Shown in pieces: positions 60,612 to 63,269 of a stretch of 64,000 bases of DNA. Every line of letters starts with the position of its first letter. The first letter of the stretch is position 1. The notes under the pieces are model-generated. The model had not been told where the DNA came from, searched no databases, and saw nothing but the letters and a program-made list of their open reading frames with translations. The DNA comes from Escherichia coli (GTDB taxonomy: Bacteria > Pseudomonadota > Gammaproteobacteria > Enterobacterales > Enterobacteriaceae). Where the stretch lies: NCBI RefSeq assembly GCF_044647545.1, contig NZ_CP172818.1. One strand, written 5' to 3'. The translations under genes and the position numbers were made by a program.

Positions 60612-63269
60612 TTATTGAGTAGCTGAAATTGACGTCGGCGCTTCCGTTGGTGTGACTTGCCGCGTCTGGTCCTGAATAACAGGCTTAATGTCTGCCGCTG
60701 AAGAATCAGGGGCTGCCGTTCCCTTTTGTTCACACGGCAACAACAGGCCGCTGAACAGATCGGCAGGTAGCGGCTTCGGCAATACGATCTCGCATTGTGC
60801 GCTGCCTTCCCAGAACACCGTCATATGCTCACCCGCATTGACTCCCGCCAGATAGACATTGCCTTCATCATCCACAATGCCAACCTGCTGCTGCTCGTCG
60901 TTTTTCACTTCCGCGCCAAACGGCGGGTAGCTGCCGTCACGCAACCGCAGTACCGCCATCGCTTTTTGCCCGCTGATCACTTTGAATTTGCGATAGCCAA
61001 TTGCACCTTCCGTCAGGGTTGCCTGTACCACCGACTGGGTGGCTTCCGCATCTTCTGGCAGGTTGTTTAAATCGATATACGCCTGATTGCGATAGTAGTT
61101 GTTAATATCGGCGACCACCGCCTTGCCAAACATATTGGTGTACACCGGCGCGCCGTTGCTTTCGACCGGCACATTGGCAATCCCGTCGGCGTCAATCAGC
61201 AAGCGCGTACCGCCCATGCTTTGAGTGCGATGCAGCGCCCCACCATGCGCGGTCAGCGTTGCCCCGCCCTGTAAGGCGATCCCCGCCGAGCGGTATTCCC
61301 CCTCATGGTAGTTGGCGCTGAGATCAACCTTCGCCAGCGAGCCGTCGTGACTCAGATAACCATCCACGCTGCCGTGCTGTTCGCTGGTACCGACGTTAAC
61401 CTGGTAGTGCGTTGCGTCATCAACGCGCTTAAAGTAACCGACCTGGCTGCTGTCCGACCCACTGCCGTAGGAGCCGTTGTAGGTCACGGTGCTGCTGTCG
61501 CTCCACGGAATGCTCATGCTGAGGTACATCCCCTTATCCGCGTTATCGTCATATTCGTAGCGATAGCCGGTCACCGAGATGCTCATGTTGCGAATACTCC
61601 CCATATTAAAATAGTGGGAAAACATCAGGTTATAGTTTGTCTGTTCCGGGCGATTCCAGTAAGTACGATGGGAGTAGTTGAGATAGATCGAGACACCCGC
61701 AGCGGCAAAGTTCTGGTTATAGGTGATCGTATACATCTCTTTGTCGTTACCGGTCCGCGCCATGTCCGACTGGTTCGCGTCCAGATACTCGCTCATGGTC
61801 ATGAAGTTCTTTTCAGAAAAACGGTAGCCTGCAAAGGTGACGCGGCTGTTGAGTTCGTCAAAGTCTTTGGCATAGCTCACGCGAAAGGAGTTGCCGTCCA
61901 GTTTTCCTTTGCCGTATGCGCTGTCATGATCCAGGTTGACGTGCGAGTGAGTCACATCGAACGCCAGCGCGCCAAACTGTGCGAGGTCGCGCCCCCCCCC
62001 CATCGCCGCCGACTGGTAGTGTTCATCTGCCAGCGCGCCACCGTAGAGCGACCAGCCATCTGCCACCCCCCATGACGCTTCTCCGCCGGAGAAAAAGCCG
62101 CCTTCGGTCTTGTGGTTCCAGTCTTCCGGACGCCCCATCATCACTTTGTAACGCACCTGCCCCTGGCGCGTGAGGAATGGCATAGATGCGGTGGTAACGT
62201 CATATTCCTGCACCTGACCATTCTGTTCTTCAACGCGGACGTGCAGTGTGCCGGAGACGGAGTCGCCGATATCCTGAATGCGGAATGGCCCGGCGGGAAC
62301 CTGGGTTTCGTAAAGTACCCGGCCCATCTGGCTAATGGTGACTTTTGCACTGCTGTGCGCCACGCCGGAGACATCCGGCGCATAGCCGCGCAGGTTGGGC
62401 GGCAGCATCTGGTCATCGGTGCTGACGCTGCTGCCAATATAGTTAAAGCCGTCGAAAATATCGGAGTTGAGATAATCTTCACCCAGCGACAGCTTGGCTT
62501 TTAAAGAGGGTAAGGCCCGCCAGGCGTAATAACGGCTCCAGTCCCAGTTTTTGCTCGTTGTGCTGTTACTGCTGTCATCGTCTTCGTCGTCGTTGCTGCG
62601 GGTGTGCTGATAATCACTTTGCCAGTCAGCGCGGAAACGCCATGCCCCCAGGTTCGCCCCAACGGTACCGTTGCCGCTGATATCATGTGAGTCCTCGCCC
62701 CCCTGCTCCTGATGACGGGTTTGCGCATTGAGGCTGTAGTCGGCAATCAGGCCAGGAATACCGTCGTCCCAGCGTGAGGGTGGGTCCCAGTCGCTGCTGG
62801 TATATTCGAGATAAGCCTGTGGCACTGTCAGCAGCAACGCCGACTGGCTTAAATCATTCTCGACTTCCATCCCATCTAATTGCCCCGGTTTAAGGCATTC
62901 ATCGTTGTGCGTCCACTGCAGGCTTTTTGCTATCCCTTCTTTCAGCCCCAGCGCCGCCACTAACTCAGGTGTCAGGCAGGCATACGTTTTTGTTGGATCG
63001 TTTTCAGAAACATACCAGTTAATGTCGTATTCATCAGAAAGGGGTTGTTTATTTATAAATACACGTAAATTATATTTTCCCGCGTCGACATACCCTTTTT
63101 TTGAAAACTTACCGAGATCAATTTTCGTGTCGCCCTTTAACTCAAGGAAACGGGGGTCAAATTGAATGGAATCATCAGCCCATGCATTGACTGATCCACC
63201 TGAGATTGCCAGCGCAATATAGCAGGCGATTCCCCGCAGCCGAAAATTTGAGTGATTAGGCATACACAT
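60612..63269 (-). CDS. yfcU: Outer-membrane fimbrial usher, apparently intact
   Basis: Uninterrupted 885-codon ORF with signal peptide and usher-length beta-barrel protein; I recall the K-12 reference usher here as a pseudogene. Confidence 0.82.
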   Translation of the reverse strand: MCMPNHSNFRLRGIACYIALAISGGSVNAWADDSIQFDPRFLELKGDTKIDLGKFSKKGYVDAGKYNLRVFINKQPLSDEYDINWYVSENDPTKTYACLTPELVAALGLKEGIAKSLQWTHNDECLKPGQLDGMEVENDLSQSALLLTVPQAYLEYTSSDWDPPSRWDDGIPGLIADYSLNAQTRHQEQGGEDSHDISGNGTVGANLGAWRFRADWQSDYQHTRSNDDEDDDSSNSTTSKNWDWSRYYAWRALPSLKAKLSLGEDYLNSDIFDGFNYIGSSVSTDDQMLPPNLRGYAPDVSGVAHSSAKVTISQMGRVLYETQVPAGPFRIQDIGDSVSGTLHVRVEEQNGQVQEYDVTTASMPFLTRQGQVRYKVMMGRPEDWNHKTEGGFFSGGEASWGVADGWSLYGGALADEHYQSAAMGGGRDLAQFGALAFDVTHSHVNLDHDSAYGKGKLDGNSFRVSYAKDFDELNSRVTFAGYRFSEKNFMTMSEYLDANQSDMARTGNDKEMYTITYNQNFAAAGVSIYLNYSHRTYWNRPEQTNYNLMFSHYFNMGSIRNMSISVTGYRYEYDDNADKGMYLSMSIPWSDSSTVTYNGSYGSGSDSSQVGYFKRVDDATHYQVNVGTSEQHGSVDGYLSHDGSLAKVDLSANYHEGEYRSAGIALQGGATLTAHGGALHRTQSMGGTRLLIDADGIANVPVESNGAPVYTNMFGKAVVADINNYYRNQAYIDLNNLPEDAEATQSVVQATLTEGAIGYRKFKVISGQKAMAVLRLRDGSYPPFGAEVKNDEQQQVGIVDDEGNVYLAGVNAGEHMTVFWEGSAQCEIVLPKPLPADLFSGLLLPCEQKGTAAPDSSAADIKPVIQDQTRQVTPTEAPTSISATQ
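61992..62001 (-). repeat. 10-nt G homopolymer (coding strand) inside the usher gene
   Basis: Plus strand shows 10 consecutive C; on the coding strand it reads ATG GGG GGG GGG (AAMGGGRD). Confidence 0.9.

Follow-up and report, generated by a model that had tools for sequence, protein, structure and literature searches.

A young G10 tract in the Escherichia coli fimbrial usher gene yfcU: probably an accidental hypermutable site in an ST648 sub-lineage, not an evolved switch

The yfcU gene encodes the PapC-like outer-membrane usher of the Yfc fimbria, and in the stretch of Escherichia coli DNA analysed here (64,000 nucleotides of contig NZ_CP172818.1, hereafter the window) its coding strand harbors an uninterrupted run of ten G. 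We propose, with a probability of around 0.8, that this tract is a young and accidental hypermutable site rather than an evolved contingency switch, and that it is unrelated to the lesion that inactivates the same gene in strain K-12. The tract was created by one base substitution within a single sub-lineage of sequence type (ST) 648, and among isolates that carry it one-base length variants are found far more often than at shorter G runs of the same gene. It is a hotspot for slippage (or for miscalling), and one that is recent and not conserved.

The tract and the reading frame that carries it

On the plus strand the tract appears as ten C, flanked as ...GGTCGCG CCCCCCCCCC ATCGCC..., and on the minus strand as ten G (G10). 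It occupies nucleotides 1269-1278 of the usher gene and, by codon arithmetic, codons 423-426 read ATG GGG GGG GGG, encoding Met-Gly-Gly-Gly. A single long open reading frame (ORF) spans the tract without interruption, exactly as a first-pass annotation of this DNA, made from the letters alone, had described it; the start assigned by the annotation pipeline PGAP to the identical gene in relatives lies two codons later (63263), which gives a protein of 883 amino acids. As in a contingency locus, the repeat is uninterrupted, lies within an ORF and is long enough for slippage. The window usher alone carries Pro859Ala, in the C-terminal tail (position 60695), compared with all other G10 genomes examined, and its exact sequence (Gly425, Ala859; WP_400164285.1) is found on only one contig in the protein collection described below.

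Runs of this kind are scarce. Apart from G10, no stretch of G or of C in the 64 kb exceeds 6 bases (there are none of 7, 8 or 9), and under a first-order Markov model the expected number of G/C runs that reach at least 10 in a window of this size is about 0.06. There are eight G/C runs of at least 6, three of which lie inside yfcU. In the K-12 genome, G:C runs of 8 bp are already outliers (Foster and colleagues, PMC8510543), and prokaryotic genomes generally under-represent poly(G) and poly(C) tracts (Orsi et al. 2010, PMC2831843). The earlier remark that long G/C tracts are rare in E. coli is thus in accord with the run count, the Markov figure and the published survey of K-12. Two simple accounts of the tract were considered and rejected: chance, as G10 is a statistical outlier against the Markov model, and an error of sequencing in G10 itself, as it is found in nine complete genomes and 1474 blocks of the protein index.

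Origin and distribution

A query of 80 nt around the tract was compared with a set of 5,426 complete E. coli genomes, of which 1217 carry an allele of the same family; this is the allele type of B2, D and F-type strains. At the tract site, four related alleles with 99.2-95.3% identity have GGGGGTGGGG, that is ATG GGG GTG GGG (Met-Gly-Val-Gly), in which a T separates five G from four (G5TG4). More distant alleles, namely those of O157 and of a third type (both approximately 76-77% identical in DNA to the window allele) and that of K-12 (77% identical in protein), have GGC GTC GGT or something similar at this position, without a G run. Because the related alleles read G5TG4, G10 is the derived state, formed by a single T>G transversion (GTG>GGG, Val425Gly) that fused the G5 and G4 runs.

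With the rest of the 80-mer matched exactly, G10 is present in nine complete genomes, G9 in one and G11 in none, and the interrupted G5TG4 form with identical flanks is present in 133. All 30 of the 30 evenly sampled G5TG4 matches span exactly 80 nt, and G6TG4 was not seen among the 5,426 complete genomes. The uninterrupted run is therefore found in 10 of the 1217 genomes of the allele family and is absent from at least 1207. A contingency locus would be expected to keep its repeat across lineages or over time; here, among the complete genomes of the family, only those 10 have it uninterrupted, and the relatives read G5TG4.

The nine genomes with G10 represent seven countries (two each from the USA and Japan, and one each from China, Switzerland, Spain, Australia and Canada), share the same intact usher (WP_038432069.1), have intact distal yfc genes, and differ from one another by singletons only over 17.6 kb. 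A genome with the G5TG4 form, PC-NDM34, differs from them solely at the T/G base across the 16.6 kb that it covers. Two of the G10 genomes, ECONIH1 and MS14385, belong to ST648 (PMC8454413), and PC-NDM34 to ST2083 (PMC8941953). Taken together, the near-identity of the G10 genomes, the one-base difference from PC-NDM34 and the ST648 typing indicate that G10 is a very recent marker of one ST648 sub-lineage, referred to here as the clone.

Length variants and their predicted effect

The predicted product of each tract length was matched by exact sequence in a collection of 15 billion proteins (Table 1). The counts are given in contigs and in index blocks, neither of which equals independent mutational events, as clonal inheritance is possible for some variants.

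Table 1. Products of the yfcU tract alleles in the protein collection
Allele	Contigs	Index blocks
G5TG4, Val425 (ancestral)	at least 1000	4331
G10, Pro859	723	1474
G10, Ala859 (window's own)	1	no block record
G9-truncated, 436 aa	14	30
G11-type truncated, 446 aa	40	58
G12-truncated	1	
G7, in frame, one Gly fewer	1	

Products truncated by G8 or G13 were found on no contig by the same exact matching, and neither were those of the interrupted allele after gain or loss of one base (G5TG5, G5TG3 and G4TG4). Inspection of the DNA behind the matches confirmed G9 in four assemblies (L012-L015) and in strain E17 (L009), and G11 in another (L010). Isolates with a variant length include SRR7839517 (G11) and DRR791062, SRR30265171 and ERR11438055 (G9). 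Two runs of six G elsewhere in yfcU, whose positions and counts are given in Table 2, served as controls; the products of a slip in these runs end before the tract, so both tract backgrounds count towards their denominator of approximately 5805 blocks. Altered lengths account for about 2-6% of alleles on the G-run background, compared with 0.02-0.16% for each G6 run, and at least 94% of assemblies with the G run are in frame. Length polymorphism that would toggle the reading frame is thus present among isolates, with sequencing error as a possible contributor.

The first-pass annotation had called the tract prone to slippage, and the G9 and G11-type variants, far more frequent than the corresponding variants of the G6 controls, sustain that view. 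It had also named what would count against it, namely a tract of invariant length together with usher disruptions that map elsewhere: the length varies, and several disruptions do lie at other positions, as described in the next section.

In the proposed sequence of events, a T>G transversion in the ST648 sub-lineage joined G5 and G4 into a new mononucleotide repeat within yfcU, and slipped-strand mispairing during replication would then add or remove one G. We infer this mechanism because the rate of insertions and deletions (indels) in E. coli is exponential in run length (PMC8510543). A slip of one base in either direction would bring a TGA into frame 12-22 codons downstream and yield a truncated usher, a change that should be reversible. 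The earlier prediction of truncation by a single G is upheld, with the stops falling at codon 439 for G9 and codon 449 for G11. By alignment with PapC, what remains in such a protein is the N-terminal domain and approximately half of the barrel; the remainder of the barrel is lost together with the two C-terminal domains. In the chaperone-usher pathway, an usher truncated within the barrel cannot assemble fimbriae, and the G9 and G11 ushers should accordingly be unable to do so. The tract would speed the loss, and permit the regain, of a weakly selected gene.

The K-12 pseudogene and other yfcU lesions

The first-pass annotation took the K-12 usher to be a frameshifted pseudogene and proposed the tract as a plausible place of that lesion. 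K-12 yfcU (b4661) is indeed annotated as a pseudogene, but its only break is a TAG stop lying in frame at codon 579, a Tyr codon (TAC or TAT) in other alleles and TAC in both O157 and the window (61524-61526). When K-12 is compared with the intact O157 gene, the only differences in length are two in-frame gaps of 3 nt, and there is no frameshift. At the tract site K-12 has GGC GTC GGT and no G run, so the tract cannot be where its lesion lies, and the window usher is free of a lesion of the K-12 type. The two cases share the gene, the position in the operon and, once a slip has occurred in the tract, an inactivated usher; they differ in that K-12 has a nonsense codon at 579, a protein only 77% identical and a different sequence at the site.

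Further natural lesions of the gene lie at other positions. Strain GF131 has lost one base in a G5 run at nucleotide 615, and some ST131 strains carry the insertion sequence (IS) IS1 at about nucleotide 340. E17, the sole complete genome with G9, is annotated as a frameshifted pseudogene and also has CAG>TAG at usher codon 352 (equivalent to window 62214-62216), upstream of the tract, and so bears two independent lesions.

Alternative explanations

Several observations weigh against an accidental hypermutable site confined to one sub-lineage. The G6TG4 allele yields the same 446-amino-acid product as G11, and the 58 blocks in Table 1 are an upper bound for G11; DNA was returned for two places with this product, of which one was G11 and the other (L011) G6TG4. 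G9 could in principle come from loss of the T in G5TG4, and the linked single-nucleotide polymorphisms (SNPs) that might separate a G10 from a G5TG4 source offer no distinction, the two backgrounds being identical over 5 kb. In E17, the upstream stop may have inactivated the gene before G9 arose. Sequencing and assembly, too, err most often in the length of homopolymers, and such errors scale with run length. Finally, one Logan assembly (L013, DRR791062) has G9 on a yfc background that is about 1% diverged from the ST648 clone, with differences in the first 436 codons that are all synonymous, which suggests either a second origin of the uninterrupted run or transfer of the allele.

The strongest of the alternatives, though still unlikely, is that the tract is biologically stable and that G9, G11, G12 and G7 are errors of base calling, polishing or assembly. 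Poly-G is error-prone on some Illumina chemistries, and long homopolymers are the classic weak spot of long-read consensus sequences. The G6TG4 assembly has a second indel nearby, which suggests low quality, and E17 is a 'CM' whole-genome-shotgun chromosome record. Set against this, the variants appear in assemblies of unrelated runs from NCBI, ENA and Logan, nine of the ten complete genomes agree on G10 although they come from different laboratories and platforms, and E17 has only four other indel differences from the window over approximately 22 kb and so is no error-ridden assembly. The variants outnumber those of the G6 controls 10- to 100-fold, although errors too grow with the length of a run.

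A second alternative is a contingency locus that has evolved as such or is under selection now, in which the ST648 sub-lineage gains from reversible ON/OFF expression of Yfc, for example by evading immunity or a fimbria-dependent phage, and in which G10 has spread through its mutability. In its favour, the variant lengths fall on either side of the in-frame one (+1 and -1), a surface organelle is under the control of the gene, G10 is worldwide and abundant (1474 blocks), and other surface structures are known to undergo reversible frameshifts at homopolymers, one example being the A7/A6 change in kpsC of E. coli (PMC13410964). We nevertheless consider it improbable. The tract is found in no other lineage, it lies in the middle of the gene and away from the 5' end, the frame is kept in at least 94% of assemblies, Yfc has been described as cryptic (PMC3559732), and unrelated usher lesions lie elsewhere, as would be expected under weak selection. 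The SNP that created it, moreover, is nonsynonymous and is the clone's only difference from a G5TG4 genome over 16.6 kb, so that hitch-hiking with the clone explains the spread of G10. The candidate switch of the first-pass annotation was in this respect an overstatement, since what it described is a recent derived SNP of a single sub-lineage. A related form of the idea, in which a contingency locus has been caught at birth, with one point mutation that gave the epidemic ST648 sub-lineage a reversible switch on the usher and with selection from host immunity, or from phage that use the fimbria, now maintaining an ON/OFF mixture, is to our minds just as doubtful.

The least probable alternative is that Val425Gly in the usher barrel is itself the relevant change, whether selected or neutral, and the G run a by-product: the position is hydrophobic and conserved (Val or Leu in all other YfcU alleles, Ala at this barrel position in PapC and Ile at the equivalent residue of FimD) and Gly could alter function, yet there is no evidence of a parallel Val>Gly change in other lineages, the excess of ±1 variants would be left unexplained, and the idea is compatible with a hypermutable site without replacing it.

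The operon and the window's own distal genes

The identification of the gene as a fimbrial usher in the first-pass annotation is secure. The solved structure of PapC (7lhg_C) is matched from one end to the other, over residues 34-845 (E=3.1e-210), and the clone's usher, from which that of the window differs only at residue 859 (Ala859Pro), has PF13954, PF00577 and PF13953 on its record. With PapC_N, Usher barrel and PapC_C domains and full-length likeness to solved ushers, YfcU belongs to the PapC/FimD family. The near-identical complete genome WP5-S18-ESBL-08 (L001) is annotated with sixA, a fimbrial protein, usher, chaperone, three fimbrial proteins and an StfH/YfcO adhesin, followed further on by smrB, prmB and aroC, and the gene order sixA, yfcV-U-S-R-Q-P-O, smrB, prmB, aroC is the same as in K-12. 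Because near-identical genomes and K-12 are both annotated with that operon, the locus is yfc. The F9/yde operon, which the chromosome coordinates of matches had suggested, was ruled out by the same annotation. Yfc is a core-associated chaperone-usher fimbria of E. coli that is considered functional, although cryptic (Wurpel et al. 2013, PMC3559732).

Table 2. Coordinates of the tract, the predicted stops, the control runs and the yfc genes in the window
Feature	Coordinates	Strand	Description
G10 homopolymer	61992..62001	-	third base of Met423 and Gly424-Gly426; T>G derivative of GGGGGTGGGG (Val425Gly)
yfcU, PapC-like outer-membrane usher	60612..63269	-	885 codons, intact
TGA after -1 slip (G9)	61952..61954	-	predicted 438 aa product ending ...AAMGGGATSHSLARWRSM
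TGA after +1 slip (G11)	61924..61926	-	predicted 448 aa product ending ...AAMGGGARPRTVWRAGVRCDSLARQPGS
G6 control run	62066..62071	-	gene nt 1199-1204; +1 product in 4 blocks
G6 control run	62698..62703	-	gene nt 567-572; -1 product in 9 blocks, +1 product in 1
yfcV, major fimbrial subunit	63344..63910	-	intact, 100% identical to the clone's (WP_000032634.1)
yfcS, periplasmic chaperone	59840..60592	-	intact, 100% identical to the clone's
yfcR	59335..59823	-	in-frame hybrid, 5' part clone-type, 3' part K-12-type; 162 aa, WP_400164282.1; left junction about 59674
yfcQ, K-12-type	58851..59338	-	1-nt deletion at 58977, frame shifted after codon 121
yfcP, K-12-type	58318..58854	-	1-nt deletions at 58567, 58561 and 58471; ORF ends after 97 aa
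yfcO, tip adhesin, K-12-type	57493..58331	-	four ORFs from several indels; Septu island absent downstream

The distal part of the operon sets the window apart from the clone. On both flanks of 57422-59673 the two are 99.95-99.98% identical, and within this interval the window has 2.25 kb of K-12-type sequence in place of 4.3 kb in the clone, a segment that comprises the 3' part of yfcR, yfcQ, yfcP, yfcO and a Septu PtuA/PtuB defence island. The same mosaic is present in no complete E. coli genome, the best match being 98.9%, and the broken yfcQ, yfcP and yfcO products, together with the hybrid YfcR, are found on one NCBI contig only. Between 57448 and 58977 the window differs from K-12 by approximately 11 indel events and approximately 14 substitutions. 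The mosaic is either an unusual recombination import that has since decayed or a low-coverage or chimeric patch in the assembly. Because yfcQ, yfcP and yfcO already read as broken, the fimbria encoded by this sequence as it stands is without its adhesin and minor subunits, and switching at G10 is probably moot in the window itself, although the other G10 genomes have an intact operon.

The segment that the clone carries between yfcO and smrB (14809-16810 of the WP5-S18-ESBL-08 sequence) contains an HNH endonuclease gene and an AAA ATPase gene that constitute a Septu type I pair, with matches to PtuA at E=1.6e-168 and to PtuB at E=1.1e-94. In ECONIH1 the PtuB gene has a 1-nt deletion.

Some further sites in the window and the clone also vary or are rich in simple runs. 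The gene yfcA (TauE/SafE family; 53016-53824, minus strand) is 809 nt long in place of 810, being frameshifted by a T6 to T5 change at 53765. WP5-S18-ESBL-08 has a different -1 frameshift in this gene, at the equivalent of 53536, and E17 has G6 reduced to G5 at 53377. Three of 11 clone genomes thus each have a different yfcA lesion, the gene being intact in the other eight, and these could be parallel inactivations or coincident errors. At 52153, in the yfcL-mnmC spacer just 3' of the yfcL stop, the window is missing 6 nt (AATGTG) compared with WP5-S18-ESBL-08 and E17. Runs of A8 and A9 cluster within 13554-21770, at 13554, 14023, 21027 and 21763, and by transfer of coordinates from an annotated relative they map to the lrhA-nuoA, yfbV-yfbU and ackA-yfbV intergenic regions.

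Comparison with known systems

Fimbriae of E. coli normally undergo phase variation by DNA inversion, as in fim, or by Dam methylation, as in pap. The classical simple-sequence contingency loci are found in other genera and include the poly-G/C tracts of pilC and opc in Neisseria and the poly-C tract of the fim promoter in Bordetella; to these may be added the promoter repeats of hif in Haemophilus influenzae (PMC9820224) and the loci of a homopolymer survey in Bordetella (PMC1891110). The yfcU tract resembles them in that slipped-strand mispairing at a repeat would switch a fimbrial or pilus-related gene ON or OFF. It differs in that the classical loci are conserved within their species, often lie in a promoter or near the 5' end, and belong to repeat-enriched genomes, whereas G10 in yfcU is found in one young sub-lineage.

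A closer parallel is the 5' poly(A) tract of inlA in Listeria monocytogenes, where A7 and A6 alleles exist alongside an interrupted A2GA4 form in which no deletions were detectable (Orsi et al. 2010, PMC2831843). In both cases a surface-protein gene has an uninterrupted homopolymer in one lineage and an interrupted, in-frame version in others, and frameshifted alleles occur on the uninterrupted background only, as is mirrored in yfcU by the lack of G5TG5, G5TG3 and G4TG4. The inlA tract is poly(A), of 7 nt, at the extreme 5' end, with an 8-amino-acid product and experimentally measured rates. That of yfcU, in contrast, is poly(G), of 10 nt, and in the middle of a gene for an assembly machine rather than an adhesin.

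Within E. coli itself, the kpsC gene of the K96 (group 3) capsule undergoes a reversible A7/A6 frameshift (PMC13410964). This too is a coding homopolymer in a gene for the biosynthesis of a surface structure, and the -1 variant recurs both in laboratory mutants and in natural isolates, with IS insertions and other lesions at the same locus. It differs from yfcU in that reversion has been shown experimentally and in that the tract is shorter, is present across K96 strains, and is not the product of a clone-specific SNP.

Significance

The yfcU tract offers a natural comparison of mutability, in which the same gene in the same clone, with G5TG4 or with G10, has sharply different spectra of frameshifts. 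It shows that one SNP can render the gene for part of a surface organelle hypermutable in E. coli ST648, a multidrug-resistant lineage that has spread worldwide. There are also practical consequences, as annotation pipelines, and virulence typing that employs yfc genes as markers of extraintestinal pathogenic E. coli (ExPEC), will see the ST648 usher flip between 'intact' and 'pseudogene', and the K-12 pseudogene is unsuitable for interpreting the tract site. If the switching were both reversible and selected, the tract would mark the emergence in E. coli of simple-sequence phase variation, a rare event; and if it were truly a locus at its birth, it would show how this form of phase variation originates in a species that normally does without it.

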